A stretch of 64,000 nt of DNA, from the NCBI GenBank assembly GCA_965652075.1, contig CBFGTN010000004.1:6775-70774 (forward strand), written 5' to 3'. Below the pieces are notes generated by a model. It saw only the letters and a program-made list of their open reading frames with translations. It searched no databases and was not told the DNA's origin. Of the stretch, positions 32,653-62,815 are shown one piece after another. Both the position numbers and the translations under genes were made by a program. Position 1 is the first letter of the stretch, and each line of letters starts with the position of its first letter. The DNA comes from an uncultured bacterium (GTDB taxonomy: Bacteria; Chloroflexota; Limnocylindria; QHBO01).

Positions 32653-32783
32653 CGACGCCAAGTGTCGCCTCGGTGCCGATCGTGGTCTATGGCCCATCCG
32701 CGTAGTACCGATGGTCACGGGTGGGGGACCCTTGGAGCGCCGGTGTACCCTTCGGAGCCTCAGTACGGGAGCACGGCACGCAC

Positions 32784-33689
32784 ATGGCGCGATCGATGTG
32801 GCGGGGAGCAATCCAGTTCGGCCTGGTCACGATCCCGGTCAAGCTCTACCTGGCGACCGAGCAGGGCGGGATCGGCTTCAACCTCCTCCACCGCACCTGC
32901 CTGAACCGCATCCAGATGAAGGTGTACTGCCCGCATCACGACGAGGTCATCCCGCGCTCGGAGACGGTGCGTGGATACGAGTACAGCAAGGGCAAGTACG
33001 TCGTCGTCGAGGACGAGGACATCGACTCCGTGCCGCTCAAGACGGTCCGCGCGATCGAGATCGAGCTCTTCATCAACGCCTCGCGCGACGCGGAGGGCGT
33101 GCAGTTCGTGAAGCAGGCCTACTACCTGGAGCCTGAGCAGATCGGCGCGAAGGCGTTCTACCTGCTGAAGTCGGTCCTGGCCGAGCAGAACAAGAGCGCC
33201 ATCTGCAAGATCGTCCTCAAGGACCGCGAGCAGCTCGCATCGCTCAACCCCTTCGCGAAGACGATGCTCCTCACCACGCTGCACTGGCCCGATGAGGTCC
33301 GCGCCGTCGACGAGCTGAACCTTCCCGAGGACGAGATCGAGATCAAGGCGTCCGAGAAGAAGATGGCCGAGCAGCTCGTGGCCAGCATGACCGGCGACTT
33401 CGACGCCAGCGAGTACGCCGACGACTATCGCGAGGCGCTGATGGCGGTCATCGAGAAGAAGGTCGCCGGCGAGAAGCCGGAGCCTGCCGCGCGCGCCGAG
33501 CCGACGAACATCACCGACCTCATGGCCGCGCTCGAGGCCTCGGTCGCGGCAGCGCGCCAGGACCGCAAGGCGGAGCCTGCCGAACCGACGAAGGCCAGGG
33601 CGAAGCCGGCGCGGGCGAAGTCGACCAGGACCAAGAAGGCCACCGAAGAGGCGGAGGCTCCGCGGCAGCGGCGCCGCAAGACCGCCTGA
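32784..33689 (+). CDS. ku: Ku protein (non-homologous end joining) with a basic C-terminal tail
   Basis: MARSMWRGAIQFGLVTIPVKLYLATE... and YEYSKGKYVVVEDEDI are a typical bacterial Ku core. It ends in a Lys/Arg/Ala-rich tail. Start trimmed to the ATG at 32784. Confidence 0.9.
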   Translation: MARSMWRGAIQFGLVTIPVKLYLATEQGGIGFNLLHRTCLNRIQMKVYCPHHDEVIPRSETVRGYEYSKGKYVVVEDEDIDSVPLKTVRAIEIELFINASRDAEGVQFVKQAYYLEPEQIGAKAFYLLKSVLAEQNKSAICKIVLKDREQLASLNPFAKTMLLTTLHWPDEVRAVDELNLPEDEIEIKASEKKMAEQLVASMTGDFDASEYADDYREALMAVIEKKVAGEKPEPAARAEPTNITDLMAALEASVAAARQDRKAEPAEPTKARAKPARAKSTRTKKATEEAEAPRQRRRKTA

Positions 33690-38427: not shown

Positions 38428-41400
38428 TCAGGCCGCCCCGCGCTCCTCCTCGCTCCGCACGTCCGTCCGGCGCCGGCGCCGGCCGACGTCGCCGCGGTCC
38501 GCGACGACCGCCGCGAGCGTCTCGAGGACCTCGCGTCGGTATCCGGCCGGCAGCGCTCGCAGCTCGGCCATCGCCTCGGCCCGTCCGAGCCGCGGCGCCG
38601 AGCCGCCCGACACGAGCTCGTCGTAGTCGTTCGCCGCCCCGACGATGTGTGCCCCGATCGGCACGCCTCGGCTGCGCCGGCGACCCGCCGCGAGCCGCCG
38701 ATAGCCCTCGATGAGCGCGCCGACCTCGCGCAGAGACGGGATCGGGGCAAGCTCAGCGACGCCGCGCGCGTCGAGCAGGTGGAGGCGGCCGGCGAGCTCG
38801 ATGCTGCTCCGTTCCTCGTCTGCGAGACCGAGCCTGCCGGCCACCGCGGACGCCAGCCGGCCGACGCGGTCGGCGTGCCCGCGGGCGGCGGCCCCGCGCC
38901 CGTCGAGCGAGCGAGCGATCGTCAGGAGCGCGTCGCGCAGGGTGTCCTGCCCCTCGTGCTGCGGGCCGGCCAGCTGGCTCGCACGCTCGACGAGGTGCTC
39001 GACCGCGTGCTCGTCATCGCTGTCGCGGAGAGCGGCCGAGGCGAGCTCCTCCAGCGTGCCGCGCAGGTCGCCGACGTCGGCGGCCAGGCGGTCGGCGCGA
39101 ACGACGCGGTTCTCGCCTGCACGCTTGCCGTAGTACAGGGCGGTGTCCGCTGCGGCGATGAGGCCGGCGCGATCCGTGGCGTCGCCCGGGAGCCCGGCGA
39201 CGCCGACGGTGATCGTGACGGGCGTCGGATCGGCGGCGGTCAGCGCGGACACGGCGCGCCGGATGCGGTTCGCGACGCGAGCCGCCTCGGTGACGCCGGT
39301 GTGCGGAAGGATGATCGCGAACTCGTCGCCGCCGTAGCGATAGACGCGGTCGTCGCTTCGGGCGGCGCCGTAGATCGCCGTCGCGGCACGGTGGAGCAGT
39401 GCGTCGCCCGCGGGGTGCCCGTGGCGGTCGTTGTAGGCCTTGAAGCTGTCGAGATCCATCATCAGCACCGCCAGTCGCGGGCGACCGGGCGCGTCCCCGA
39501 GATGCTCGACGAAGCCGCCGAGGTCGCGCTGGAAGGCACCGTGGTTGGAGAGGCCGGTGAGCGCATCGGTCTCGGCGCGCTGGCTCACGGCCCGGTGCGT
39601 GTCGGCATTGCGCAGGGCGATCGAGGCCTGGCCGGCGAACAGCTGAATGAGCTCGAAGTCGCTCTCGCTGAAGTACACCTCCGGCCCGCCGAGGCGCGAG
39701 ACGTTGAGCGCGCCGAGCACCTCGCCCTCCGCGACGAGGGGCACGACGACGACGGCCTCGGGGTCCGGCGGCGTGCCGGGAATCTGCAACGCGCGCGGAT
39801 CGCTCAGCGCGTCGTTGGCGAGGATCGGCTGGGAGTGCTCGACCGCCCATCCCATGAGCCCGCGCCCGAAGGGGATCGCATAGCGACCCACCTCCTCGGC
39901 ATGCTGTTCGCGGGTGAGGACCGGCGTCATCACCAGTTCGGCGGGATCGGTCCGATAGACGGACAGGTTGTCGTAGGCGACGACGTCGCGCAGGCCGTCG
40001 GCGATCGTCTCCAGCACGTCGGCGTGATCGAGGGCGGACAGCAGCCGCTCGTTGATCTGCAGCAGCCGTCGCTGGGAGTCCGCCCGGCGCGCCAGCTCGC
40101 TCGACTGGTCGATGAGCCGCTCGTAGCTCGTGGCGTTGGCCATCGCCTGCGCGGCGTAGCCCGCGAAGATCGACATCGTCTGCAGGTCGTCGTCGGTGAA
40201 GCGGTGGAAGCCGAGCTGGCTCAGGACGATGACGCCGAGCGCCCGACCCTCGTACAGCATCGGCACGACGAGCATCGACTCGGGCACGTCCTCCGTGCCG
40301 TCGATCGTCTTGCCCCGGTCGTCGTCGAGCGCGTCGTTGACGAGCAGCGGTTCGCCGTGCTCGGCGACCCAGCCCGTGAACCCCTCGCCGATCTCGACCC
40401 GCAGCCGCTCCACCGCGTTCTCCGGGTCGCCGTCCAGCATCTCGCGCGTGAACGCGATCGGATCGCACACGTTCCGCTCCCAGTCGACCTCGTAGACGCG
40501 GATGTCGTGGAAGTCCGCCAGCGGCTCGGCCTCGGCGACGATCGCCTCAGCGATCGCCTTGACATCGGTCAGTCGGTTCAGACGCGCCGACAGGTCCTGG
40601 ATCGATCGCATGCGGGCGGCCTGCGACGCGACGGACCGGTAGAGTCGCGCGTTCTGGATCGCGACCGCGGCCTGGTCGGCGAACGCATGGACCAGCGCGA
40701 CCTCCTCCTCCGGCCACGTCCGCTCGTTGCGGTGATAGAGGCCGAGCAGGCCGAGCGACTCGTCGGCGCCGACGAGTGGCACCAGGCAGACGGTCTGAAT
40801 GCCCTCGGCGAGGTAGCTGTCGCGGAGCGCGCCGATGCCGTCGTCGTCGAGCGATCTGGCGAACGGCCGCCGCTCGCGGAGCGTGCGCACCCCGACCGTA
40901 TCGGCGTCGAAGCGCAGGTCGGCGACGCGCGCCAGGAACGCATCGGACAGGCCGTGCTGCGCCGCGACCTTGAACGGTCGCTCGTCCCCGGGGGTCACGA
41001 GCCAGAGCCCAGCCTTGTCGGCCTCGAACAGCGAGCGCGTGAGATCGACGACCTCGCCGAGCACCGCCGTCAGGTCGAGCGTGCCGGTGAGCTCCTTCGT
41101 GACGGAGCGCAACGCGCGTGCGCGCTGGAGCTCCCGGCGTGCGCGGCCAAGGAGACCGGTGCTCGCCAGCGTCGTGCCGACCGTCGCGGACAGGGACCGG
41201 CGGAAGGCGGCGGACATGCCGGCGCCGGACTCGGCGTCGATGACGAGGACGCCGATCGGCCCGCGCTTCACTGCGAGCACGATCTCCACCTCGTCGCCAG
41301 CGGAGTCGGTCGAGCGGGTGGCGGGCGGAGCCTGGCCGAAGCCCCCGTGCGCGACGAGCCCGTAGGGCGGACTGTCGCCGACGTAGACGGCAACGCGGTC

Positions 41401-41739
41401 GACGCCGAGCTCGGCGCGCAGCGCCTCGACGACGGCGCGGGCGACCGATGCGGTGTTCGGGGAAGTGGCGAGCCCGGCCGCGATCCGGCCGAACACGGCG
41501 AGCTCCCCGGCGCGGTCGGTTGGCGCGTCGTCGTGCGGGGCGACGTCCTCCCCGCCGCGATCCTCGACGAGCAGGCGCTCGACGTCGCTTCGGCGGAAGC
41601 GCCGGTCGCCGCGGGCGTTGATGCGGTAGGCAGCGAGGCGACCGGCATCGGTCCAGGTGCGAATCGTGTTCGGGTGCACGCCGAGGAGCGTCGCCGCCTG
41701 GGCGACCGTCAGCAGCGTCTGGGCATCATCGCGCGACAC
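38428..41739 (-). CDS. Multidomain signalling protein: excisionase/MerR-type HTH – tandem GAF domains – GGDEF diguanylate cyclase – C-terminal degenerate HD-like domain
   Basis: N-terminus: LLTVAQAATLLGVHPNTIRTWTDAGRL (an HTH_17-like domain). Three GAF-like modules follow, then a GGDEF domain with an intact RYGGDEF site. The C-terminus (GHADRVGRLAS...LAGRLHLLDARG) resembles a degenerate HD/HD-GYP. Confidence 0.8.
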   Translation of the reverse strand: MSRDDAQTLLTVAQAATLLGVHPNTIRTWTDAGRLAAYRINARGDRRFRRSDVERLLVEDRGGEDVAPHDDAPTDRAGELAVFGRIAAGLATSPNTASVARAVVEALRAELGVDRVAVYVGDSPPYGLVAHGGFGQAPPATRSTDSAGDEVEIVLAVKRGPIGVLVIDAESGAGMSAAFRRSLSATVGTTLASTGLLGRARRELQRARALRSVTKELTGTLDLTAVLGEVVDLTRSLFEADKAGLWLVTPGDERPFKVAAQHGLSDAFLARVADLRFDADTVGVRTLRERRPFARSLDDDGIGALRDSYLAEGIQTVCLVPLVGADESLGLLGLYHRNERTWPEEEVALVHAFADQAAVAIQNARLYRSVASQAARMRSIQDLSARLNRLTDVKAIAEAIVAEAEPLADFHDIRVYEVDWERNVCDPIAFTREMLDGDPENAVERLRVEIGEGFTGWVAEHGEPLLVNDALDDDRGKTIDGTEDVPESMLVVPMLYEGRALGVIVLSQLGFHRFTDDDLQTMSIFAGYAAQAMANATSYERLIDQSSELARRADSQRRLLQINERLLSALDHADVLETIADGLRDVVAYDNLSVYRTDPAELVMTPVLTREQHAEEVGRYAIPFGRGLMGWAVEHSQPILANDALSDPRALQIPGTPPDPEAVVVVPLVAEGEVLGALNVSRLGGPEVYFSESDFELIQLFAGQASIALRNADTHRAVSQRAETDALTGLSNHGAFQRDLGGFVEHLGDAPGRPRLAVLMMDLDSFKAYNDRHGHPAGDALLHRAATAIYGAARSDDRVYRYGGDEFAIILPHTGVTEAARVANRIRRAVSALTAADPTPVTITVGVAGLPGDATDRAGLIAAADTALYYGKRAGENRVVRADRLAADVGDLRGTLEELASAALRDSDDEHAVEHLVERASQLAGPQHEGQDTLRDALLTIARSLDGRGAAARGHADRVGRLASAVAGRLGLADEERSSIELAGRLHLLDARGVAELAPIPSLREVGALIEGYRRLAAGRRRSRGVPIGAHIVGAANDYDELVSGGSAPRLGRAEAMAELRALPAGYRREVLETLAAVVADRGDVGRRRRRTDVRSEEERGAA

Positions 41740-41879
41740 CGGCCGGACCCCGTCATCGTCTCACCAGGCCGCGCCCGAAGGGCGAATGGAGCTTCTGGTA
41801 AGAACCGTGGACCCGATGCTAGAAACGGGATGTTCGGGGTGCGATGCCCCATTCGTACCGGCTCGCCCCGGACGTCGGC

Positions 41880-50027: not shown

Positions 50028-50294
50028 CCCGCACCAGCCGCTGACGCCGGCCGGCCCGATCCCCTGATCGGCAGGGGGGAAGCGGCCGGAGCGGCGATCT
50101 GTGCGGGATGTGACGCGGCCCGCCCGTGACCGATGAGCTGTCACGCTCGTCGGTCACCCTGGGCGGGTCGTGTCGTACCCTTCGCGCTCTTCAGGCCCGG
50201 CCACCGCCCGACTCGCCGCGACGGTGCCGGGCTTCGTCGTGCGTCCGGGGTGGCCGATTCGGAGCAGGGCGCTCGGCTACCCTGACGCGAACCG

Positions 50295-51389
50295 ATGAAG
50301 CTGCTCCATTTCGCGGACCTCCATCTCGACGCGCCCTTCGCGTGGGCGACGCCGGAGACGGCGCGGGTCCGGCGCCGGAATCGCCGCGAGTCGCTGATGC
50401 GGATCCTCGCCCTGGCGGAGTCAGAGGCGGTCGACGCGATCCTGTGCGCGGGCGACCTGTTCGAGCAGGATCGGATCGGTCCCGACACCGTGGAGTTCCT
50501 GCGCAGCGCGTTCGAGCGCACCGATCGCCGCGTCTTCCTCGCGCCGGGCAACCATGACTGGCTCTCGGCGCGGAGCCCGTACCGGCTCGTCCGCTGGTCA
50601 CCGAACGTCCACGTCTTCACCGAGGCCGAGCTGCGGCCCGTCGAGCTCACAGATGGCCTGACCCTGTGGGGCGCCGCCCATCGTGCCCCCGCGAACACCG
50701 ACGATCTTTTCGCCGGGTTCCGGACGGAGCGCGGGGGTCTCCACGTCGCCGTCGCGCACGCGTCCGAGCGAGCGACCCTGGCGTGGCAGGAGTCCGGCAA
50801 GGCCCCGCACGCGCCGTTCGACGCGGCGGAGCTGCCGGGGACGGGCCTGGCCCATGCGTTCCTCGGCCACTATCACCTGCCGCGCGATGCGGAGCTGCAC
50901 ACGTATCCGGGCAACCCGGACCCGCTCGACTTCGGCGAGACCGGCGAGCGCGGCGCAGTGATCGCGACGATCGGCGCCGATGGCGCCATCAGCAGGTCGC
51001 GCCACGACGTCGCGGTCAGCGAGGTGCACGACCTCGAGATCGACGTGGGCGGAGCGACGCATTCGGATGAGGTCGCCGTCGCCGTCCGCGAGCGGCTCGC
51101 TCCGCTCGGTGGCTGCGTGCGCGTCACCCTGTCGGGAGAGCTCGCTCCGTCGCTGCAGCTCGACCTCCGCGAGCTCGAGCGCAACGGCGAGCACCTCGAG
51201 GGGCTCGTCGTGCGGGCGGGCCACCTGACCGTCGGCTACGACCTGGATGTGATCGGCGCCGAGTCCACCGTTCGGGGACAGTTCGTGCGATCGGCCGTCG
51301 AGGAGATCGCCGACCCGGAGCTGCAGCGGCGCGTGATCCTCACCGGCCTGCGCGCCCTCGAGGGCCGCGGCGACCTGGAGGTCGCGTAG
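50295..51389 (+). CDS. sbcD: Mre11/SbcD-type metallophosphoesterase nuclease (YhaO-like)
   Basis: Calcineurin-like motifs FADLHLD, AGDLFE, GNHD and GHYH. Confidence 0.8.
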   Translation: MKLLHFADLHLDAPFAWATPETARVRRRNRRESLMRILALAESEAVDAILCAGDLFEQDRIGPDTVEFLRSAFERTDRRVFLAPGNHDWLSARSPYRLVRWSPNVHVFTEAELRPVELTDGLTLWGAAHRAPANTDDLFAGFRTERGGLHVAVAHASERATLAWQESGKAPHAPFDAAELPGTGLAHAFLGHYHLPRDAELHTYPGNPDPLDFGETGERGAVIATIGADGAISRSRHDVAVSEVHDLEIDVGGATHSDEVAVAVRERLAPLGGCVRVTLSGELAPSLQLDLRELERNGEHLEGLVVRAGHLTVGYDLDVIGAESTVRGQFVRSAVEEIADPELQRRVILTGLRALEGRGDLEVA

Positions 51390-51391
51390 GC

Positions 51392-54199
51392 GTGCGCATC
51401 GAGCGCGTGATCGCGCACGCCTTCGGACCCTTCCGCGGTGAGTCCCTCGACCTCGCGTCGGGGCTCACGGTCGTGAGCGGACCGAACGAGGCAGGCAAAT
51501 CGAGCTGGCACGCCGCGATCCGCGCCGGTGTCTGCGGCGTGCGACGCGGCCGTGGCGCCGCGACGAAGTCCGACGCGGCGTTCGAGGAACGCCACCGGCC
51601 CTGGGACGGCGACGGGCGCTGGGCGGTGGAGGTCCGCCTGCTTCTCGACGATGGGCGGACGATCGAGCTCCACCAGGATCTCGCCGGCAAGGTCGCATGC
51701 CGCGCCGTGGACGTGGTCCTCGGCCGCGACGTGTCCGACGAGATCATGGATGGCACCCCCGATGCGTCGCGCTGGCTCGGGCTCGACCGCGAGGCGTTCG
51801 CCTCGACGGTCTGCGTCGGGCAGGCGCAGATCGCCGCGATCGCCGGGCGGGAGGCGGCCGAGTCGCTCCAGGAGCACATGCAGCGGGCCGCCGCCACCCG
51901 CGGCACCGATGCGACCGCGGCCGAGGCACGCCAGCGGATCGACGAGTTCCGCCGCATCCACGTCGGCGTCGATCGCCAGGGCTCGCGCGGGCCGCTTCGC
52001 AGCGCGAAGGAGCGCGTGGAGCACGCGCGAGCGACGCTCGCGGACGTCCGAGCCCGGCACGAGGCGTTCCTCGACGCCAGCCTGAGCGCCGAGGCCGCCG
52101 AAGGCGAGGCCGACGCCCAGTCTCGGCGCGCCGACGCGATCGAGGCGGCGATCGCCGCCGCCGCCGCGGACGAGCTCAACCGTCGAGCCGGTCGCGCCAC
52201 GGCGCTCGCCGCCCGGCACCCCGCCGAGCCCGCGGGCCAGCTCGACCGGGACGCCCGGGCCGATGCCGTTGCCGCGGCGCTCGACGGCTGGAGCGGCCGG
52301 GCCCGGCCCGAGCCGTTGTCCGGCCCTACGGCGGCCGAGCTCGAGGCGGAGCTCGCGGCGTTGCCCGCGCCACCCGTCGGGGACGTCGAGCCACACCCGT
52401 CGGTCGTCGATGCGCGCCGCAGGCTCGATCGTGCCGACGAGGCGCTTGGCCTGCTCGGTGACGCTCCCACCGTGAAGCAGGCCGCCGGACCTGGGGAGGA
52501 GGAGCTGCGGGCGATCGCCCGCCGCCTCCGGACACCGGATCCCGATCCACGCCCCGACCTCGAGGCGGAGCTGCACGCGGCCGAGGCCGAGCTCTCCGCG
52601 GGCAACGGTCGCGGGGCAACCGGTTGGGTCGTCGCCGCGGCCCTTGCGGCGCTCGCCGCCGCGGCCGCGCTCACGGCCGGGCAGGTGGCGGTCGCCGTGG
52701 TCGGGTTCGCGCTCGCGGCTGGTCTCGTCGCATGGGCCCTGATCGGCAGGCGCTCGGCCTCCACGGGGTCCATGCGCGTCGAGCTCGCGCGCGCGGCGCT
52801 CGTCCCGTCCGCGCTCGCCCGCGATGCGGCCGCCTCGGAACGTCGCGCCGCTGCCGAGCAGGCCGCGTCGATGGGCCTGCCGGTCGATCCCGTCGACCTG
52901 GACCGACGCGCGGACGCGGCTGCCGAGGCCGCCCGTGCCGCTCGCGAGGCGGACGCGTGGAGCGTTCGGCGCGCGAGCCTCGACGCGCGCCGCGCCGGCG
53001 CGATCGCCGAGCTGCGCGAGGCCCTGCGGGCGCGGGGCGTCGAGGCTGCCTCGGACGACGTGGCGGATGCGATGTCGGCGTACGAGGCCTCGTGCCGCCG
53101 ACGTGCCGAAGAGACTCGGCGGGCCGGCGGCCGAGAGGCGCTGGTCCGCGCCGTGGCGACGCGGCGCGAGGCCGAGGCCGCGACTGCCGAGACCGAGCGC
53201 GTCGCCGTCCGCGCCGAGGCCGCGCTGCGCACCGCCGCCTCCCAGGTCGGGATCTCGGCCGACGGATCGGCTGACGATGTTGCAAAGGCGCTCGGCGGCT
53301 GGCGCCGTGAGCAAAGCGAGGAGGCTCGGCGATCGGATGAGGCTCGCCGCGAGTGGCACGAGCTGACGACGCTGCTCGATGGACGGTCCCTCGACACGTT
53401 GCGATCGGACGCGGACGAGGCGGCGACGCGGGCATCGACCCTCGCGGCGCACGTCGACGCCGTGACCCTCGCGGAGCTCGGATCGCGCGAGGACCTCGTC
53501 TCGCTGCTCGAGGTCGAGCGCGAGGAGCTGGCGCGCGCGCGGGCGGACGCGAGCACCCAGCGCGGCGCGCTGGCCGAGATGCAGCGCGATCTCCCGGACG
53601 TCGCCGAGGCGGAGGAAGCGCTGTCCGACGCAGCGGACGAGCTCGCCAGGGTCGTGCGCCTCGGCGAGGTGCTCGCGGAGACGACGCGCCTGCTGCGCGC
53701 GGCCGAGGATCGGGTCCATCGCGATCTTGCGCCGGTGCTGTCGCAGGCGATCACGCGATGGCTGCCGACCGTGACGCTCGGCGCCTACACAGAGGCGACG
53801 GTCGATCCGGCCGATCTCTCGATCCGCGTGAAGCACGCCGAGACCGGACAGTGGCGCCCGCCGCCGACGCAGCAGCGCCACCAGGCATCCGTCGAGCTCC
53901 TCTCCGAGGGAACCGGCGAGCAGATCTACCTGCTCCTGCGCGCGGCGATGGCCGAGTACCTGACCACGACCGGGGAGACCGCCCCGCTGCTGCTCGACGA
54001 GGTCACGGCCCAGGCCGATGCCGAGCGCAAGCAGCGCCTCCTCGAGGTGCTCCACCAGCTGAGCGCGGAGCGCCAGATCGTCCTCTTCACCCACGATGAC
54101 GACGTCACGGCATGGGCTGCGCGAACCCTCGATGGCTCGCGCGATCGGCTGGTTGAGCTCGGCGCTCTCGCACCGGCACCGCAGGCGGCCCTGGGCTGA
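51392..54199 (+). CDS. sbcC: SbcC/Rad50-family ATPase without a zinc hook; the central region is a predicted TM hairpin (YhaN-like)
   Basis: N-terminal Walker A GPNEAGKSS; long Ala/Arg/Glu coiled coils; C-terminal D-loop/Walker B LLLDEVTAQAD. No CxxC hook motif. The mid-protein reads WVVAAALAALAAAAALTAGQVAVAVVGFALAAGLVAWALIG. The GTG start is 3 nt after the sbcD stop. Confidence 0.8.
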   Translation: MRIERVIAHAFGPFRGESLDLASGLTVVSGPNEAGKSSWHAAIRAGVCGVRRGRGAATKSDAAFEERHRPWDGDGRWAVEVRLLLDDGRTIELHQDLAGKVACRAVDVVLGRDVSDEIMDGTPDASRWLGLDREAFASTVCVGQAQIAAIAGREAAESLQEHMQRAAATRGTDATAAEARQRIDEFRRIHVGVDRQGSRGPLRSAKERVEHARATLADVRARHEAFLDASLSAEAAEGEADAQSRRADAIEAAIAAAAADELNRRAGRATALAARHPAEPAGQLDRDARADAVAAALDGWSGRARPEPLSGPTAAELEAELAALPAPPVGDVEPHPSVVDARRRLDRADEALGLLGDAPTVKQAAGPGEEELRAIARRLRTPDPDPRPDLEAELHAAEAELSAGNGRGATGWVVAAALAALAAAAALTAGQVAVAVVGFALAAGLVAWALIGRRSASTGSMRVELARAALVPSALARDAAASERRAAAEQAASMGLPVDPVDLDRRADAAAEAARAAREADAWSVRRASLDARRAGAIAELREALRARGVEAASDDVADAMSAYEASCRRRAEETRRAGGREALVRAVATRREAEAATAETERVAVRAEAALRTAASQVGISADGSADDVAKALGGWRREQSEEARRSDEARREWHELTTLLDGRSLDTLRSDADEAATRASTLAAHVDAVTLAELGSREDLVSLLEVEREELARARADASTQRGALAEMQRDLPDVAEAEEALSDAADELARVVRLGEVLAETTRLLRAAEDRVHRDLAPVLSQAITRWLPTVTLGAYTEATVDPADLSIRVKHAETGQWRPPPTQQRHQASVELLSEGTGEQIYLLLRAAMAEYLTTTGETAPLLLDEVTAQADAERKQRLLEVLHQLSAERQIVLFTHDDDVTAWAARTLDGSRDRLVELGALAPAPQAALG

Positions 54200-57052: not shown

Positions 57053-59026
57053 GTGATCAGCGATACCGCGATTCCACTGAGGTTCCAGACCGCCGAGGTC
57101 GGTGTCGACTGGCTTCAGTGCAACATCGAGTGCCAGGAAGGCTGCCCGGTCAACACGAACTGCCGCGGCTACCTGATGCTTGCCGCCGAGGGGCGCTTCG
57201 AGGAGGGGTACATCCTCGCCCGCGACCCGAACCCGGTGGCCGCGATCTGCGGCTATGTCTGCTCCGCGCCCTGCGAGAAGGCCTGCCGCCGCGCGGACAT
57301 CGACAAGCCGCTCGCGATCCGCGCGATGAAGCGCTTCCTCGTCGACTGGCACTACGGCAACAACATGCCAGACAACGTCGTCGTCGCCCCGCCGACCGGC
57401 CGCAGCGTGGCCGTCATCGGCGCCGGTCCCGCCGGCCTCGCCGCGGCCAAGGAGCTCGGAGGCTGGGGCCACGAGGTGCACGTCTACGAGGCGCTCCCCT
57501 CCGGCGGCGGCACGACCCTCATCGGGGTCCCCGCCTTCCGCCTGCCGCGCGACGTCATCGAGCTCGACGTCAACTGGGTCGCCAAGCACGGGGTGCAGTT
57601 CCACTACAACGTCGAGATCGGCCGCGACGTGACGCTCCAGGAGCTGCGCGACCGGCACGATGCCGTCGTCGTCGCCACGGGCTGCATGTACCCGGTCGCG
57701 ATGAACGTCCCTGGCGAGGAGCTCGAGGGCGTGATCTACGGCGTCGACTTCCTGAAGCGCGCGAACCTCGGGCAGCCTCAATGGGTGGGCGAGCACGTCG
57801 TCGTCATCGGCGGCGGCTACACCGCCATGGACTCGAGCCGAACGGCGCTCCGGCTGGGCGCCAAGACCTCGACGATCATCTACCGCCGCGGCCCGGAGGA
57901 GATGGTCGTGGACGAGGAGGAGCAGCACGAGACGCGCTTCGAGGGCGTGAAGTTCGAGTACTTCGCCTCGCCGGTGGAGGTCACCTCCGGTCCGGACGGC
58001 AGGGTGACCGGGATGGTCTTCCAGCGCACGCGCCTGGGCCCGCCGGACGCGAGCGGGCGGCGCAGCGCCGAGCCGATCCCCGGCAGCGAGTTCACCGTCC
58101 CCTGCGACATGGTCATCCCCTGCACGAGCCAGGCGTCGGACAACAACGTGCTGGGCGAGTTCGGCGCGGCACTGAACCGTCACGTCGGCGTGACCGACAC
58201 GCGCACGGTCGTCGAGGGCGGGTCGCTGTCATCGTGGCGAACGCCGCCGCTGAACGGATCCACCCCGCGCGACGCCAGCGGCGGCTCGCTCAACGCCCTG
58301 CCGTTCGAGTTCAACCGCGGCAACGTCGTCATCAACGCGGACAGCTTCGGCACGACCGTCGACGGCGTGTTCGCGGTCGGCGACTTCGTCACCGGCCCGG
58401 CGACGATCATCGAGGCGGCCGGGCTCGGGCGGCGGGCCGCGCGGGCCGTCGACCGCTGGCTGGCCGGCGTGCGCGGTGAGGAGCTCGAGGAGCTGCCGGT
58501 GATCAACCGCGCGGTCATCACCCAGAGCCTCGACCACGACATGCCACGCTTCTACGAGGCGACCCGGCGCCAGGAGATCCCGATGGCGCCGCCGGAGCTG
58601 CGCCGGGACTTCACCGGACTCGTCGAGGTCGGCTACGACACGCGCGGAGCGATCGCCGAGGGCACGCGCTGCCTGCAGTGCAACCACAACATCAACATCG
58701 ACGGGCCCCGCTGTATCCTGTGCGGGCTCTGCGCCGACGTCTGCCCCGAGGGCGTGATCTACATGGTCGACAAGGCGCAGGTCGGCGGCGACGACCCGGA
58801 GCAGGACTTCTTCAAGGCGTGGCCGCGCGGAATCGCGATGATCATCGACGAGGAGCGCTGCATCCGCTGCAACCTCTGCGTCGAGCGGTGCCCGACCAAC
58901 TGCATCACGATGGACCGCCTGGAGCTCGAGCGGTTCACGCCTGATGGGAAGGTGCTCTTGGAAAGCTACAAGGACAACGTCCTGGGACAGGTCGGCCAGC
59001 AGGCCGGAATGGCGGTCGATCGATGA
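57053..59026 (+). CDS. GltD/NfnB-like FAD/NAD(P)H oxidoreductase with an N-terminal 2x[4Fe-4S] domain and a C-terminal 2x[4Fe-4S] ferredoxin domain
   Basis: N-terminal Cys clusters (CNIECQEGCPVNTNCRGY, CGYVCSAPCEKAC). Two Rossmann motifs (VAVIGAGPAGLAAA and VVIGGGYTAMD). C-terminal ferredoxin motifs CLQCNHNINIDGPRCILCGLCADVCP and CIRCNLCVERCP. ATGA overlap with cytochrome b6. Confidence 0.8.
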   Translation: MISDTAIPLRFQTAEVGVDWLQCNIECQEGCPVNTNCRGYLMLAAEGRFEEGYILARDPNPVAAICGYVCSAPCEKACRRADIDKPLAIRAMKRFLVDWHYGNNMPDNVVVAPPTGRSVAVIGAGPAGLAAAKELGGWGHEVHVYEALPSGGGTTLIGVPAFRLPRDVIELDVNWVAKHGVQFHYNVEIGRDVTLQELRDRHDAVVVATGCMYPVAMNVPGEELEGVIYGVDFLKRANLGQPQWVGEHVVVIGGGYTAMDSSRTALRLGAKTSTIIYRRGPEEMVVDEEEQHETRFEGVKFEYFASPVEVTSGPDGRVTGMVFQRTRLGPPDASGRRSAEPIPGSEFTVPCDMVIPCTSQASDNNVLGEFGAALNRHVGVTDTRTVVEGGSLSSWRTPPLNGSTPRDASGGSLNALPFEFNRGNVVINADSFGTTVDGVFAVGDFVTGPATIIEAAGLGRRAARAVDRWLAGVRGEELEELPVINRAVITQSLDHDMPRFYEATRRQEIPMAPPELRRDFTGLVEVGYDTRGAIAEGTRCLQCNHNINIDGPRCILCGLCADVCPEGVIYMVDKAQVGGDDPEQDFFKAWPRGIAMIIDEERCIRCNLCVERCPTNCITMDRLELERFTPDGKVLLESYKDNVLGQVGQQAGMAVDR

Positions 59027-59757
59027 GCAACGGAGACCGCAACCCGATCGTCCGCGCCGTCACCGAGTCGTCGCTGTGGCGCAGCCTTTTCCGTCAGCCG
59101 TACCCGACCACCAGCCGCACGCGGGCGCTGGCGGTGATGAACAACGTCTTCCTCCACCTCCACCCGGTCCGGGTGAAGCGCCACGCGGTGCGCTACACCT
59201 ACACGTTCTGCCTGGGCGGGATCAGCTTCTTCCTGTTCCTGGCGCTGACCGTGACCGGCCTGTACCTGATGTTCTTCTACGTCCCGTCGGTGAGCCGCGC
59301 CTACCAGGACATCCAGTCCATCGAGGCGGCGGTCGCGTTCGGCAGCTTCACGCGCAACATGCATCGCTGGGCGGCGCACCTCATGGTGCTGACCGTCTTC
59401 CTGCACATGATCCGGGTCTTCTATCACGGCGCCTACAAGCCGCCGCGTGAGTTCAACTGGGTCGTCGGCGTGATCCTGCTCTTCTGCACCCTGTGGCTGA
59501 GCTTCACGGGCTACCTGCTGCCGTGGGACCAGATCGCGTTCTGGGCCATCACCGTCGGCACCCAGATGGCGCAGTACGCACCGATCCTCGGCCCGGAGAC
59601 CGGCTTCTTCCTGCTCGGCGGCATCCAGGTCGGCGGCGACACGCTCCTGCGCTTCTATGTCATGCACGTGATCGCGTTCCCGCTCATCACCGCGATCTTC
59701 CTGATCGTCCACTTCTGGCGGATCCGGAAGGACGGCGGGATCAGCGGGCCGGTGTAG
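59023..59757 (+). CDS. Cytochrome b6-type subunit (N-terminal half of a split cytochrome b)
   Basis: 244 aa with four TM helices and the haem-ligand His pairs (HRWAAHLMVLTVFLHMIRVF, then YVMHVIAFPLITAIFLIVH). It ends before the cytochrome b C-terminal helices. Confidence 0.9.
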   Translation: MSNGDRNPIVRAVTESSLWRSLFRQPYPTTSRTRALAVMNNVFLHLHPVRVKRHAVRYTYTFCLGGISFFLFLALTVTGLYLMFFYVPSVSRAYQDIQSIEAAVAFGSFTRNMHRWAAHLMVLTVFLHMIRVFYHGAYKPPREFNWVVGVILLFCTLWLSFTGYLLPWDQIAFWAITVGTQMAQYAPILGPETGFFLLGGIQVGGDTLLRFYVMHVIAFPLITAIFLIVHFWRIRKDGGISGPV

Positions 59758-59773
59758 CCTTGGTGATGGACCG

Positions 59774-60391
59774 ATGACGATCGAGAAGCGGCCGAACGCC
59801 ACCGCCGACAAGAACGCCCCGACCCAGGCGCCGGAGCGCGCGCCGATCGTGGCGCCCGGCACCGGGCCGAAGCTGCCCGGGCCGCCCGGAGTCCCGGGCA
59901 CGGAGCGGTTCCGGCTCCTCGCCTACGTCAAGCAGGAGTCGATGGTCCGCGTCGACAAGCGGCCGGACGAGACCGTCCTGACCTGGCCGCACCTGCTGCG
60001 CGCCGAGTTCGTGATGATGTCACTGATCCTCGTCCTGCTCGTCGTGACCGCGATCTTCATCCAGGCCCCGCTCGAGGAGATGGCGAACCCGGCCGTCACG
60101 CCGCACGTCGCGAAGGCCCCGTGGTACTTCCTGGGCCTGCAGGAGATCCTCAGCTACTTCAACGCCACCGTCGCCGGCGTCGTCGTGCCCACGTTCTACC
60201 TGCTCGGCCTGGCCGCGATCCCGTACATCGACCGCTCGCCGTACAAGGCGGCCCGTGACCGCAAGCTCATGTGGGTCTTCTTCCTCTGCCTGATGATCGG
60301 CGGCCTGCTCGTCACCTTCATCGGCTCCTTCTTCCGCGGGCCCGGCTGGAACTGGGTCTGGCCGTGGGACGGGCTGTTCTTCAACCTATGA
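59774..60391 (+). CDS. Cytochrome b C-terminal portion (b6f subunit IV-like)
   Basis: PEWY-type Qo motif KAPWYFLGLQE with three TM helices. ATGA overlap with the Rieske gene. Confidence 0.85.
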   Translation: MTIEKRPNATADKNAPTQAPERAPIVAPGTGPKLPGPPGVPGTERFRLLAYVKQESMVRVDKRPDETVLTWPHLLRAEFVMMSLILVLLVVTAIFIQAPLEEMANPAVTPHVAKAPWYFLGLQEILSYFNATVAGVVVPTFYLLGLAAIPYIDRSPYKAARDRKLMWVFFLCLMIGGLLVTFIGSFFRGPGWNWVWPWDGLFFNL

Positions 60392-61044
60392 CCCAGCAGA
60401 CGTCATACGGCGAGGTCACCGGGCCGCCGACCGGCGAGATGAGCCGGCGGACGTTCATGCGCCGCATGCTCGGCGTCGGCGTCGGGATCATGTCGCTCGA
60501 GTTCCTGGGCGCGACGCTCGCGTTCCTGTGGCCGAACCTCACCGAGGGCCTCGGGGCAGCGATCACGATCGGCACGCCTGCCGACGTCACCGCGCTCGAG
60601 CCCAGATGGGCCGAGGGCGTCCCGTTCATCTACACCCGCGCGAACCTCTTCTTCATCAACGTCCCCGCCGGAAAGGAGCTCGTCGACACGGAGGGGAACG
60701 TCGGCACGCCGGTCGATGACCCGGGTGGGGACGTGGACGAGGACCTGCCGCTGGCGGATCGGTCCGTCCTCGCCCTCTGGCGGAAGTGCCCGCACCTCGG
60801 CTGCCAGGTCCCGCAGCTGTGCGACGTGAGCTTCTGGTTCGAGTGCCTCTGCCACGGCTCGAAGTACACGATCCTCGGCGAGAAGCGGGACGGCCCGGCG
60901 CCGCGTGGCATGGACCACTTCCCGGTCAGCGTCGAGGGCGGCGCGTACGTCATCAACACCGCCGAGGTCGTCTCCGGGCCGCCACCCGGCACGGTCACGT
61001 TCGACTCGCGAACGGCGACCGACATGGCGCACTGCACGGGCTAG
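60388..61044 (+). CDS. Rieske [2Fe-2S] iron-sulfur protein with a Tat signal
   Basis: Twin-arginine motif SRRTFMRRM and a TM anchor. Rieske boxes CPHLGC and CLCHGS. Confidence 0.9.
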   Translation: MTQQTSYGEVTGPPTGEMSRRTFMRRMLGVGVGIMSLEFLGATLAFLWPNLTEGLGAAITIGTPADVTALEPRWAEGVPFIYTRANLFFINVPAGKELVDTEGNVGTPVDDPGGDVDEDLPLADRSVLALWRKCPHLGCQVPQLCDVSFWFECLCHGSKYTILGEKRDGPAPRGMDHFPVSVEGGAYVINTAEVVSGPPPGTVTFDSRTATDMAHCTG

Positions 61045-61047
61045 CCG

Positions 61048-61866
61048 ATGCGCCTGAAGTCGCTCGGCGTCATCATCACGACCCTGCTCGCCGCCGTCAC
61101 CATGCTGTACTGGTTCACCGACGGCATGCGCCGCGAATCCCTCGCCGCGCAGCACGAGGAGGAGCTCGCGCACTACGGCGAGGTGATCTTCAGCGACGAC
61201 GAGACCGAGCCGGCCGCCGCGGGATGCGCGCGCTGCCACGGTGACGACGGGACCGGCGGCGAGATCCCGAACGACCCTGACGGCCGGCGCGCTCCCTCGC
61301 TGCACACCGCCAGCCTGGCGAACAAGCTGCGCGTGAACCCCGAGTACGTCCGCCTCGTCGTGAGCTACGGCGGCGTCGTCGTCTCCGGCAACGTGAACTC
61401 GCCGATGCCCGCCTGGAGCAGCGAGGTCGGCGGCCCGCTGAACGTCCAGCAGATCGACGCCGTCGTGCAGCTCGTCGAGGGCTGGGCCGTGGAGGCTGGG
61501 GAAGAGGCGCCGGCGGAGGTCGAGGACACGCCCGAGGCCGGCCAGGAGGTCTTCAACTCGGCGGGCTGCGCCGGCTGCCATGGCCCCGACCTCATGGGCA
61601 GCACTTCCGGGCCGGACATCTCGACGATCGGCGACGGCCCGATCATCGACTTCGGCGGCGACTTCCTCACGCCGTCGGATACCGACCAGATGCTCGCCGA
61701 TTTCGAGGAGGACCCACGCCTCTTCCTCGAGAACTGGATCCGCGACTCGTCGGGGAACTACAACGGCGGCGAGGCCACTGGGATGCCGGCGCATGACGAG
61801 GAGGCGATCAACGAGAGCCAGATGCGGGCGCTGATCACCTTCCTGCTGACCCAGACCGGCGAGTGA
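61048..61866 (+). CDS. Membrane-anchored dihaem c-type cytochrome
   Basis: N-terminal TM helix, two CxxCH sites (CARCH, CAGCH) each followed by a Met-containing segment. It starts 4 nt after the Rieske stop. Confidence 0.85.
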   Translation: MRLKSLGVIITTLLAAVTMLYWFTDGMRRESLAAQHEEELAHYGEVIFSDDETEPAAAGCARCHGDDGTGGEIPNDPDGRRAPSLHTASLANKLRVNPEYVRLVVSYGGVVVSGNVNSPMPAWSSEVGGPLNVQQIDAVVQLVEGWAVEAGEEAPAEVEDTPEAGQEVFNSAGCAGCHGPDLMGSTSGPDISTIGDGPIIDFGGDFLTPSDTDQMLADFEEDPRLFLENWIRDSSGNYNGGEATGMPAHDEEAINESQMRALITFLLTQTGE

Positions 61867-61876
61867 GGGTCGACCG

Positions 61877-62470
61877 ATGAGCGCTGGCACGTACCCCGTC
61901 TACCGGCGTCGCGGCGGCTTCGGCCGCCTGCTGTCGTGGGCCGACGACTTCATGAACTGGTTCCTGTACGGCCACGAGACCTGGCTCGTCGCCGTGCTCA
62001 AGGGCGTGCCGCTCTTCCTGTTCATCTACTTCCTGATGACGTACGTGCCGAACTACGTCTACTACCTGATCACCGTCGAGCTGCCGTTCCTGCGACTGAG
62101 CGACGACCTCGGCTTCCTCATCGCCAACGGCGTGGCCGGTGGCAACTTCGCGCTCATCGTCATCCTCGCCATCGGGGTGCAGGCGGCACGCGGCCGGCGC
62201 GGGTTCGGCTGGTCGGCGATCCGGATCTTCGTCGGCCTGAACTACGTGATGGTCGTCCTGCTCCTCATCCCGCTCCTGGCGTTCAACCTGGCCGGCGGCT
62301 CCTTCTGGCCGGTGCGGATCCCCCTGCAGTCGGTCGCCTTCGGCGTGGTCGTGGCGGGAATGGGTGCCGCCGCCCTCGTGTACCTGTACTTCGAGTACAA
62401 CCGCATCACCCGGCGCGAGGCCGAGGCTGCCGCCCGCCTTGGCAGCTCGGGCCCGCCGGCCATCCGCTGA
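61877..62470 (+). CDS. Hypothetical polytopic membrane protein co-transcribed with the bc-type complex (possible accessory subunit)
   Basis: 197 aa with about 4 TM helices. It starts 11 nt after the cytochrome c stop. Confidence 0.5.
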   Translation: MSAGTYPVYRRRGGFGRLLSWADDFMNWFLYGHETWLVAVLKGVPLFLFIYFLMTYVPNYVYYLITVELPFLRLSDDLGFLIANGVAGGNFALIVILAIGVQAARGRRGFGWSAIRIFVGLNYVMVVLLLIPLLAFNLAGGSFWPVRIPLQSVAFGVVVAGMGAAALVYLYFEYNRITRREAEAAARLGSSGPPAIR

Positions 62471-62815
62471 GCCGTTCGCGCCTCGCGCACCTGGCCTGGT
62501 CGGCGCTCGTCATCGGCGTCGCCGCGCTCTTCATCGGCCTCGAGCTCTCCGCCGCCTGCCCTCCCGGTGGCCCGCTCGCCTTCGGCGACTGCGCCGAGGT
62601 GCGGCCATTCCTCGTCGGGGTCGTCGCCCTGGCGGCCGTGATCTACGTGGCAGGCTTGAGCGCGGTGCGCTGGTGGACCGGCGGCCTTCGTGGGCGAGGC
62701 GTCGCCGACGCGCGCGCCAGCCGCGACTGGTATCTGCTCGCCGCCGCACTCGGCCTGCTCATCGCGCCACTGCTGGCATTCACCCTGCTCTCGGCCCTTC
62801 GGTAGGATGGGACCG

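Follow-up and report, generated by a model that had tools for sequence, protein, structure and literature searches.

Near the 3' end of a 64,000-nucleotide (nt) stretch of DNA from an uncultured bacterium of the Chloroflexota (Candidatus Limnocylindria; assembly GCA_965652075.1, contig CBFGTN010000004.1, positions 6,775 to 70,774; hereafter the window) lies an operon in which the gene for an iron–sulfur (FeS) flavoprotein is coupled to those of a Rieske/cytochrome b complex. The unit extends from 57053 to ~62805 and encodes, in order, a GltD/NfnB-like flavoprotein, a cytochrome b6, a subunit IV-like protein, a Rieske protein, a dihaem cytochrome c and a membrane protein, followed by a further small membrane open reading frame (ORF). 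We infer a b6-type Rieske/cytochrome b complex of the clade named after its APWY motif at the quinol-oxidising (Qo) site, with the NfnB/GltD-like flavoprotein on its cytoplasmic (n-side) face. That the operon proteins form one complex linked to nicotinamide adenine dinucleotide (phosphate), NAD(P)(H), is predicted with high confidence; the direction of electron flow through it is the uncertain part.

Gene content and motifs of the operon

The six principal ORFs all lie on the forward strand, with a GC content at third codon positions (GC3) of 0.86–0.95 that matches real genes of a 70% GC window. Gene content and order are as given in an earlier note on this DNA, with Pfam and NCBIfam domain matches agreeing for five of the genes, and the gene lengths of 657, 244, 205, 218, 272 and 197 amino acids (aa) are reproduced by independent gene calls on metagenome contigs with identical cytochrome b6. 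The features of the unit are as follows.

57053..59026, + strand: FeS flavoprotein, 657 aa; Fer4_20 7e-17, Pyr_redox_2 2.5e-28, Fer4_7 1.4e-10 (two Fer4 motifs)
57113..57361, + strand: flavoprotein N-terminal domain, residues 21–103; Fer4_20, eight Cys
57419..57436, + strand: GxGxxG motif binding flavin adenine dinucleotide (FAD), GAGPAG at residues 123–128; G123, G125 and G128 invariant
57809..57889, + strand: second Rossmann motif GGGYTAMD (residues 253–260) and YRR (residues 277–279), predicted NADPH site from motif conservation
58667..58894, + strand: flavoprotein C-terminal FeS domain, by its motifs (RCLQC pair and two CxxCxxCxxxCP)
59023..59026, + strand: ATGA overlap of flavoprotein stop and cytochrome b6 start, read directly from the sequence
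59023..59757, + strand: cytochrome b6, 244 aa, four transmembrane (TM) helices; Pfam Cytochrome_B 3.2e-44
59155..59157, + strand: His45 in the NVFLHLHP motif of cytochrome b6; equivalence by position counting in orthologues
59209..59220, + strand: CLGG (C63), the CxGG motif for covalent haem c_n; aligned with Cys35 of b6
59774..60391, + strand: subunit IV-like protein, 205 aa, three TM helices by prediction; Pfam Cytochrom_B_C 4.7e-12
60116..60127, + strand: Qo-site motif APWY (subunit IV residues 115–118)
60388..61044, + strand: Rieske protein, 218 aa, one TM helix; Pfam Rieske 1.5e-06 and motifs
61048..61866, + strand: membrane-anchored dihaem cytochrome c, 272 aa; Pfam Cytochrom_C 5.3e-16 over two stretches, two CxxCH
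61877..62470, + strand: membrane protein, 197 aa, four predicted TM helices; no family match
62467..62805, + strand: small membrane ORF, ~107–112 aa; GC3 0.89, conserved by tblastn

The flavoprotein stop overlaps the cytochrome b6 start, the translational coupling that the note had described, and a second ATGA overlap at 60388–60391 joins the subunit IV gene to the Rieske gene, for which ATG 60388 is the start and a longer ORF from GTG 60271 is not used. The remaining junctions are gaps of 16 nt (cytochrome b6/subunit IV), 3 nt (Rieske/cytochrome c) and 10 nt (cytochrome c/membrane protein); the 'gaps of 4–11 nt' of the note were therefore slightly off for the 16 and 3 nt measured here. Terminator-like signals inside the operon did not rise above background (three weak matches against 1.5 expected), and the same promoter/terminator scan, which is uninformative either way for a Chloroflexota genome, found no sigma-70-like promoter. 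Both flanks are unrelated to the operon, with penicillin-binding protein (PBP) transpeptidase and PIG-L deacetylase genes upstream and a class-II aldolase-like gene downstream.

Assignment of the flavoprotein to the GltD/NfnB type, as first proposed, is borne out by matches to solved structures (E 1e-98 to 1e-64), the closest by sequence being NfnABC (9bov_A, 3.6e-98; 9n5u_A) and StnABC (8oh5_C), followed by NfnI (4ylf_B, 2e-80; 5jca_L) and then by GltD (2vdc_G, 4e-64) and dihydropyrimidine dehydrogenase (DPD). In each of the bifurcating enzymes that head this list, NfnABC, StnABC and NfnI, the matching subunit is the one with the NADPH site. A Foldseek search with an AlphaFold2 monomer model gave the same ranking, with StnC, NfnABC-A, NfnI-L and GltD on top; because that model, built on a 26-sequence alignment, has a mean predicted local distance difference test (pLDDT) score of 53.7, with the FeS domains below 50 and only the Rossmann core trustworthy, it was used solely to confirm the NfnB/GltD core fold and not cluster geometry. 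The protein combines a two-cluster Fer4_20 domain with FAD and NADPH Rossmann domains, as in the NfnB/GltD type, and its predicted topology lacks a TM helix. No gene for an NfnA, GltB or NuoF-like partner is adjacent to it, the neighbours being the PBP transpeptidase upstream and the cytochrome genes downstream.

Residue conservation was read from an alignment of the window flavoprotein with 20 diverse representatives of the same architecture, drawn from a search of 1.8 billion cluster representatives. The N-terminal cysteines (C23, C27, C31 and C37; C66, C70, C74 and C78) suffice for two [4Fe-4S] clusters as in GltD, NfnB and DPD, and C27, C31, C70, C74 and C78 are invariant across all 21 sequences; the two C-terminal CxxCxxCxxxCP motifs occupy residues 554–565 and 603–614, so that the four [4Fe-4S] sites first counted are a fair estimate. 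An additional RCLxC pair, C540/C543, is invariant in the family, as are G253–G255, D260, Y277, R278 and R279 in the dinucleotide-binding region, where the YRR motif presumably confers NADPH specificity, by analogy with what is known of the GltD/NfnB family. A Gly/Ser/Thr/Pro-rich insertion of ~50 residues (residues ~368–420; window 58154–58312), modelled at low confidence, is limited to the close Limnocylindria group (at least 84% identity) and missing from a group at 53% identity and from all distant relatives. In some relatives the N-terminus is extended by a rubredoxin-like or [2Fe-2S] domain, beside the N-terminal cluster pair, and some are fused to a receiver domain (P0126).

Residues 60–244 of cytochrome b6 align end to end with residues 32–215 of chloroplast b6 (E 1e-48), and 11 diverse sequences all retain the haem-b ligands H114, H128, H215 and H230, which correspond by position to H86, H100, H187 and H202 of b6. 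C63, in the sequence C63-L-G-G, aligns with Cys35 of b6, the haem c_n cysteine. Complexes of Chloroflexota, Planctomycetota and Syntrophaceae retain this CxGG motif for covalent haem c_n (defined in PMC5600118), which is lost in the form, found in Acidobacteriota and others, whose flavoprotein and Rieske genes come first. The ~59-residue N-terminal extension (residues 1–59) has no counterpart among solved structures. It contains the signature WxSxFR...NxF(L/M)H, common to the cytochromes b of all flavoprotein-linked complexes, the His of which is His45. Subunit IV carries its own N-terminal extension, Pro/Ala-rich and ~70 residues long, and a Qo motif reading APWY, not PEWY or PDWY, within a stretch (KAPWYFLGLQE) conserved in all flavoprotein-linked loci; by these motifs the cytochrome b/subunit IV pair is assigned to the APWY clade of Kao & Hunte 2014 (PMC4122944).

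On the opposite side of the membrane, the Rieske protein has a twin-arginine motif at residues 20–26 and cluster-binding motifs CPHLGC (60787–60804) and CLCHGSKY (60844–60867), and its S-Y signature after CxCHG would place it in the high-potential class by the criteria of PMC4122944, which assigns S-Y to that class. The dihaem cytochrome c, with an N-terminal TM helix as its anchor, carries the haem-binding motifs CARCH (61225–61239) and CAGCH (61567–61581). A fusion of monohaem cytochrome c and cupredoxin (plastocyanin/azurin-like) replaces it in the Limnocylindrales (L020:11763-13151 and other loci of a group at 49–62% identity). Both the dihaem c and this fusion support an aerobic-type, high-potential branch.

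The membrane protein at 61877–62470, without match in Pfam or NCBIfam, is conserved (44–88% identity) only within the close Limnocylindria group (at least 82–84% flavoprotein identity). A candidate seventh gene at 62467–62805, missed in the earlier note, is conserved by tblastn at 44–81% identity in 16 close loci. It has no ATG, GTG or TTG start, its sole in-frame candidate being a CTG that overlaps the preceding stop (CTGA); this junction recurs in five further loci (L002, L004, L053, L008 and L011), and in another, L016, the small ORF and the preceding gene are apparently fused in one frame. CTG initiation, a -1 frameshift or a split gene could each account for the anomaly.

Conserved linkage and probable modular origin of the flavoprotein

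Among the best 80 flavoprotein-seeded loci, taken from one genome per species and ranked by flavoprotein similarity, 72 have genes for cytochrome b6, subunit IV and usually Rieske adjoining the flavoprotein gene, the scan pattern being the C-terminal ferredoxin motif, so that the choice of loci was blind to cytochrome b. The flavoprotein gene is therefore not an unrelated neighbour, the finding that the earlier note had named as fatal to its proposal. Linked loci occur in seven phyla: in Chloroflexota (Limnocylindria and Chloroflexia), in Planctomycetota (Ca. Brocadia pituitae, Phycisphaerae and others), in many Acidobacteriota, and in Omnitrophota, Bacteroidota, Victivallales and Syntrophaceae. 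Anammox bacteria had been put forward as the only comparable case; the pairing in Acidobacteriota, Omnitrophota, Bacteroidota, Victivallales, Syntrophaceae and other Planctomycetota and Chloroflexota contradicts this. Three gene orders are found, namely flavoprotein–cytochrome b–subunit IV–Rieske, flavoprotein–Rieske–cytochrome b–subunit IV, and Rieske–cytochrome b–flavoprotein, with subunit IV further downstream. An NTGA overlap between flavoprotein and cytochrome b genes is present in 43 of the 46 Limnocylindria-class loci, including a group at 50–54% protein identity; because any pair of genes with that frame offset and a TGA stop has a good chance of an overlapping start codon, the meaningful signal here is the conserved frame relation.

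Six of the eight loci without linkage end, as contigs, within 230 nt of the flavoprotein gene. One of these six, L059, is 89% identical to L056 and shows no cytochrome b in 8 kb upstream, and is probably a real exception; L048 and L056, the other two, are weighed below. In the Limnocylindrales locus L048 (937-10985), the gene downstream of a flavoprotein orthologue 87% identical to that of L020 is not cytochrome b but encodes a second GltD-like protein, its N-terminus of the NuoG [2Fe-2S] type, and nuoJ, nuoL, nuoM and nuoN come next. A general link between the flavoprotein and nuo genes was considered and rejected, as the arrangement was found in no other locus; L048 may be a single rearrangement or an assembly chimera.

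Approached from cytochrome b, the association is looser. A metagenome scan seeded with cytochrome b yielded 80 loci of APWY type, of which 19 have the full flavoprotein and ~20 a small ferredoxin only; the remainder have neither, most of them being short contigs or operons that open with Rieske and include octahaem cytochromes. A further cytochrome b search, with a diverse profile aimed at Geobacter-type ExtP, returned almost only Limnocylindria; its useful products were two distant cytochromes b (P0399 and P0398, 55–61% identity), both in operons of flavoprotein, Rieske, cytochrome b, subunit IV and multihaem cytochrome. Seen from the flavoprotein, the linkage is thus strong; seen from cytochrome b, it is partial.

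Several single loci depart from these layouts. At L155 (5034-5777) there is a lone cytochrome b, 90% identical to the Limnocylindrales type, with no flavoprotein, subunit IV or Rieske gene found within 5–7 kb on either side. In the Ca. Brocadia pituitae cluster a gene for a GmrSD-type restriction endonuclease (L057:10206-11903) is inserted between the flavoprotein and subunit IV genes. On one metagenome contig (L084:6509-12568) a response-regulator gene precedes an operon of flavoprotein, Rieske, cytochrome b, subunit IV and cytochrome c, which is trailed by genes for a molybdopterin oxidoreductase, a 4Fe-4S protein, an NrfD-type membrane subunit and more cytochromes c.

The origin of the flavoprotein is illuminated by the ferredoxin-only sister group, operons of APWY type in which a gene for a 2x[4Fe-4S] ferredoxin of 116–147 aa stands directly upstream of cytochrome b (L122:6394-6903, L142:6490-6933, L139:5174-5524 and ~17 more metagenome loci). 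They continue with subunit IV, Rieske, dihaem c and small membrane proteins, the window layout minus its NADPH module; no homologue of the 61877–62470 membrane protein was detected in them. The small ferredoxins align with the C-terminal domain of the flavoprotein over both CxxCxxCxxxCP motifs (tblastn E 1e-12 to 1e-17) and lack the RCLxC pair. On the simplest reading of these alignments, the flavoprotein would be a cytochrome b-associated 2x[4Fe-4S] subunit fused to an NfnB-type NADPH/FAD module. Published AlphaFold3 models of the Kuenenia complexes agree with this reading: where the two cytochromes b of the dimer meet, they place an extra haem b opposite an Arg (near residue 550 in Kustd1483, residue 511 in Kuste4570; PMC12954380). 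Positional counting in the Brocadia orthologue puts that Arg inside the last cluster motif.

In the same models a His is proposed as ligand of the extra inter-monomer haem b (PMC12954380), and His45 falls at its position by counting in orthologues, the haem itself being a prediction only. His45 is invariant in the 11 diverse cytochromes b and in all 80 of the cytochrome b-seeded loci. Use of His45 and the N-terminal extension as a marker of flavoprotein docking was considered and rejected, since both are invariant in the 80 loci with or without a flavoprotein. They appear from sequence to be a feature of the APWY clade, and may constitute a general n-side electron port.

Relatives of the window flavoprotein at 84–98% identity number in the hundreds, and those with names belong to metagenome-assembled genomes of Chloroflexota or Candidatus Limnocylindria, as do the named species-representative loci at 92–96% identity. 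The host is hence a member of the Chloroflexota (Ca. Limnocylindria) and not the actinobacterium-like organism of the earlier note, which was misled by high GC. Elsewhere in the window, genes bearing no respiratory relation include a Ku homologue (32706-33689, + strand), a 1110-aa MerR-helix-turn-helix/triple-GAF/GGDEF protein (38428-41760, - strand) and a Metallophos plus SMC/AAA_23 pair resembling SbcCD (50286-54199, + strand).

Relation to known complexes

The closest known counterparts, and the only ones to have been studied, are the anammox complexes of Kuenenia (Kuste4569-4574 and Kustd1480-1485; Hauser et al. 2025, PMC12954380), in which an NAD(P) oxidoreductase is one of the subunits. 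Cytochrome b and the oxidoreductase subunit belong to one expressed complex in Kuenenia, according to the summary of de Almeida 2016 in PMC5600118; the potentials of the Kuenenia Rieske proteins were measured at above +300 mV, and AlphaFold3 models propose an FeS path in addition to the extra haem b (PMC12954380). The anammox comparison reflects true homology: at the Ca. Brocadia pituitae locus (L057) a flavoprotein with 39% identity over residues 9–623 is surrounded by Rieske, cytochrome b (58% identity) and subunit IV genes, the last with the same APWY motif. Shared traits include a b6-like, four-helix cytochrome b with CxGG, the N-terminal WxSxFR...NxF(L/M)H signature, a separate subunit IV with KAPWYFLGLQE, and a Rieske protein of the Ser-containing signature class. 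The window complex differs in its 272-aa dihaem c, where anammox complexes have hexa- or octahaem cytochromes (octa- to decahaem proteins also occur in linked loci of other phyla), and in lacking an HAO-like protein, which is octahaem in Kuste4574; in a subunit IV of three predicted helices, compared with ~5 in Brocadia, Acidobacteriota and other loci; in a flavoprotein-first gene order with stop/start overlap onto cytochrome b; in two additional small membrane proteins; and in its host, an uncultured high-GC soil member of the Chloroflexota and not a planctomycete.

Within the APWY clade, Chloroflexi are listed as members with none characterised, and Rieske proteins carry a mid-plus or high-potential signature, S-F or S-Y (Kao & Hunte 2014, PMC4122944), with which the split cytochrome b, APWY motif and S-Y Rieske (of predicted potential) of the window are in line. 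Dibrova et al. 2017 (PMC5600118) observed that short cytochrome b genes, in planctomycetes and 'many other cases', have genes for NAD(P)-binding, Cys-rich oxidoreductases nearby, and the cytochrome b groups of this kind (Dibrova et al. 2013 and 2017) overlap the APWY clade. Such accounts cover the cytochrome b lineage and mention the oxidoreductase neighbours in passing, unlike the present analysis including neither the Limnocylindria architecture nor the ferredoxin-only form, and a literature search on Limnocylindria cytochrome b/Rieske or GltD–cytochrome b6 operons found no account of this arrangement. The distinct respiratory module proposed at the outset was therefore largely right as a reading of homology and overstated as to uniqueness, the pairing having been noted in PMC5600118 and the cytochrome b lineage in PMC4122944: the kind is already known, if biochemically unexplored, and what is new is the Limnocylindria variant with dihaem c and three-helix subunit IV.

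Likeness to the cyanobacterial/chloroplast b6f and Firmicute b6c complexes extends to the end-to-end cytochrome b6 match, the four His ligands, the haem c_n Cys, a separate three-helix subunit IV and a Rieske protein exported by the twin-arginine translocation (Tat) pathway; the window complex departs from them in its APWY motif (PEWY or PDWY there), in its ~59-residue cytochrome b extension, and in lacking genes for cytochrome f or PetG, PetL, PetM and PetN. For b6f a loosely bound FNR is discussed, the place of which would here be taken by a hard-wired NADPH flavoprotein. With NfnB, NfnABC-A, StnC and GltD the flavoprotein shares the Fer4_20 and Pyr_redox_2 core, conserved Cys, GxGxxG and YRR; unlike the members of that family, it has this module fused to a ferredoxin-like domain that is a separate protein beside cytochrome b in other organisms.

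Direction of electron flow and its alternatives

The direction that we favour, tentatively and at somewhat less than an even chance, is quinol-based bifurcation of the type that Kartal and colleagues reportedly outlined in 2013 for the Rieske/cytochrome b complexes of anammox bacteria that include an NAD(P) oxidoreductase. In this arrangement the flavoprotein would bind the cytochrome b6 dimer from the n-side through its C-terminal FeS domain, close to haem c_n (C63) and perhaps also to a further haem held by His45. Four [4Fe-4S] clusters would then connect the low-potential haems with FAD and NAD(P)(H). Across the membrane, on the p-side, electrons would leave the Rieske protein, a Tat substrate, for the membrane-anchored dihaem c, from which a terminal oxidase would receive them. 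Of the two electrons of a quinol oxidised at the APWY Qo site, the first would run downhill through Rieske and dihaem c to O2, and the second by way of haems b_p, b_n and c_n and the FeS wire to FAD, where NADP+ would be reduced, a net route from quinol to NADPH that would not draw on the proton-motive force. In favour of this direction, by analogy, are the Rieske potential of the anammox homologue (above +300 mV), the S-Y signature found here and the clade-wide remodelling of the Qo motif.

Several points weigh against the complex so described. The haem c_n motif and an otherwise normal-looking b6 core are retained, and n-side electrons could simply reduce quinone, downhill; with this cofactor of the quinone-reducing (Qn) site in place, NADP+ reduction would be short-circuited unless the Qn site were gated. 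If the quinone of Limnocylindria is of high potential, the energetics of NADP+ reduction fail. Attachment of the flavoprotein in this lineage is deduced from gene and motif comparisons, the AlphaFold2 monomer being too poor for geometry; the invariance of His45 and the extension includes well-flanked loci without a flavoprotein, which makes it a clade feature and not evidence of docking; and L048 and L056 clearly break the linkage to cytochrome b.

A more specific form of quinol-based bifurcation can be proposed, which we regard as possible and on balance unlikely: a minimal, oxygen-linked, NAD(P)-reducing Rieske/cytochrome b complex, in which one electron reaches O2 by way of Rieske and dihaem c and the other is lifted to NADP+ across a ferredoxin-like adaptor and the NfnB-type flavin module joined to it, within a clade whose general n-side 'electron port' (His45 haem and FeS subunit) takes different cytoplasmic modules. 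The electron donors of soil Chloroflexota, for example trace H2 or CO, may enter at the quinone level.

Flow in the reverse direction is a substantial possibility, even if we consider it rather improbable. The flavoprotein would here be a built-in NADPH dehydrogenase, with electrons passing from NADPH through FAD and FeS clusters to haems c_n/b_n and quinone at the Qn site, either to complete a two-electron reduction together with the Q-cycle electron, as Mitchell's 'donor d', or to act in the ferredoxin/FNR-like manner proposed for chloroplast b6f; the resulting quinol would be oxidised at Qo, giving an NADPH:cytochrome c oxidoreductase with Q-cycle proton translocation. Such flow is thermodynamically downhill and needs no special gating, the CxGG motif of a Qn-site cofactor is retained, and Dibrova et al. 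read enzymes of this sort as dehydrogenases anchored to cytochrome b and recall the donor-d Q cycle (PMC5600118). In the sister group, the stand-alone 2x[4Fe-4S] ferredoxin encoded at the equivalent place likewise resembles an input port for cytoplasmic low-potential donors, and Hauser et al. (PMC12954380) point to a His and a Glu close to haem c_n that would favour the reduction of quinone. In energetic terms, however, reverse flow would gain nothing that an ordinary bc complex paired with a type-2 NAD(P)H dehydrogenase does not already provide, and Hauser et al. consider it wasteful of energy (PMC12954380); it also leaves unexplained the clade-wide Qo change to APWY and the S-Y/S-F Rieske signatures of mid to high potential.

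Bifurcation at the flavin, with the hydride of NADPH split at FAD so that the C-terminal clusters deliver to cytochrome b and quinone, the high-potential branch, and the N-terminal [4Fe-4S] pair to ferredoxin or flavodoxin, would amount to a Fix/EtfABCX-like making of reduced ferredoxin at the membrane, and is improbable. The nearest solved relatives, NADPH-site subunits of the bifurcating StnABC, NfnABC and NfnI, suggest it, the more so as the StnC and NfnABC-A alignments extend through the linker and RCLxC into the next FeS domain; two separate FeS modules flank the flavin domain in sequence, and the rubredoxin-like or [2Fe-2S] domain added in some relatives stands at the N-terminal end. The N-terminal cluster pair is, however, also present in GltD, DPD and many non-bifurcating enzymes, the Kuenenia AlphaFold3 models contain a single cluster path from haems to flavin (PMC12954380), and the operon has no ferredoxin gene.

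Less probable still is that the flavoprotein is no subunit at all, being a co-transcribed, soluble NADPH-dependent FeS oxidoreductase with a substrate of its own, kept near the bc genes for regulation or assembly. The lack of a TM helix and the orthologues or homologues that L048 and L056 carry away from cytochrome b are compatible with this; linkage held through three gene orders and seven phyla, a conserved stop/start overlap, and the persistence of the C-terminal domain alone at the same position in the sister group argue against it, as does the reported presence of homologous subunits in one complex with cytochrome b in Kuenenia, in the summary given in PMC5600118.

A selenite/tellurite ExtP/ExtQ system, the name given by the NCBI pipeline to close relatives, and an ordinary actinobacterial QcrCAB complex can both be set aside with near certainty, as cytochrome b6 only just passes the NCBIfam ExtP hidden Markov model (HMM; 294.7 bits, cutoff 290), the ExtQ model falls short of its own (61.8, cutoff 150), the window contains no ext-cluster genes (porin ExtI, rhodanese ExtH, ExtJ, multihaem ExtKL/M/N/S or ExtO), the Qcr models score below their cutoffs (QcrA 17.3 against 275, QcrB 104.5 against 500, QcrC 33.6 against 200), and cytochrome b is split. 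By HMM score the cytochrome b lineage is that of Geobacter ExtO/ExtP/ExtQ (Jahan et al. 2018, PMC5877670), but the ext cluster encodes a rhodanese, a porin and multihaem cytochromes and, unlike the window operon, no flavoprotein. NCBI records nonetheless call Limnocylindria cytochromes b at 84–98% identity 'selenite/tellurite reduction operon b-type cytochrome ExtP' (P0410, P0415, P0505; L009), and some near-identical sequences are filed as Mycobacterium sp., Actinomycetota or Steroidobacteraceae, probably through mis-binning combined with a borderline HMM cutoff. With a score barely over the cutoff, ExtQ failing and the ext context absent, the ExtP name is an over-transfer, and its systematic use in public annotation is flagged here as a misnaming.

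Reduction of NAD(P)+ through quinol bifurcation at a Rieske/cytochrome b complex has been a proposal since ~2013, discussed almost solely for anammox bacteria, whose growth is slow and whose complexes are very elaborate. The pairing of an NADPH-flavoprotein with cytochrome b6 is ancient and widespread, spanning seven phyla, and its cytochrome b-proximal part is a separable ferredoxin-like subunit. In the Limnocylindria the complex takes a stripped-down form, with dihaem c, a three-helix subunit IV, and five core genes accompanied by one or two small membrane proteins, and offers a far simpler target for heterologous expression, cryo-electron microscopy and direct assays. Were NADPH to be oxidised, the operon would encode a previously unrecognised, hard-wired NADPH:cytochrome c respiratory module; if NADPH is instead made from quinol, as we tentatively favour, the view of how reducing power is generated in abundant soil Chloroflexota and Acidobacteriota would change.

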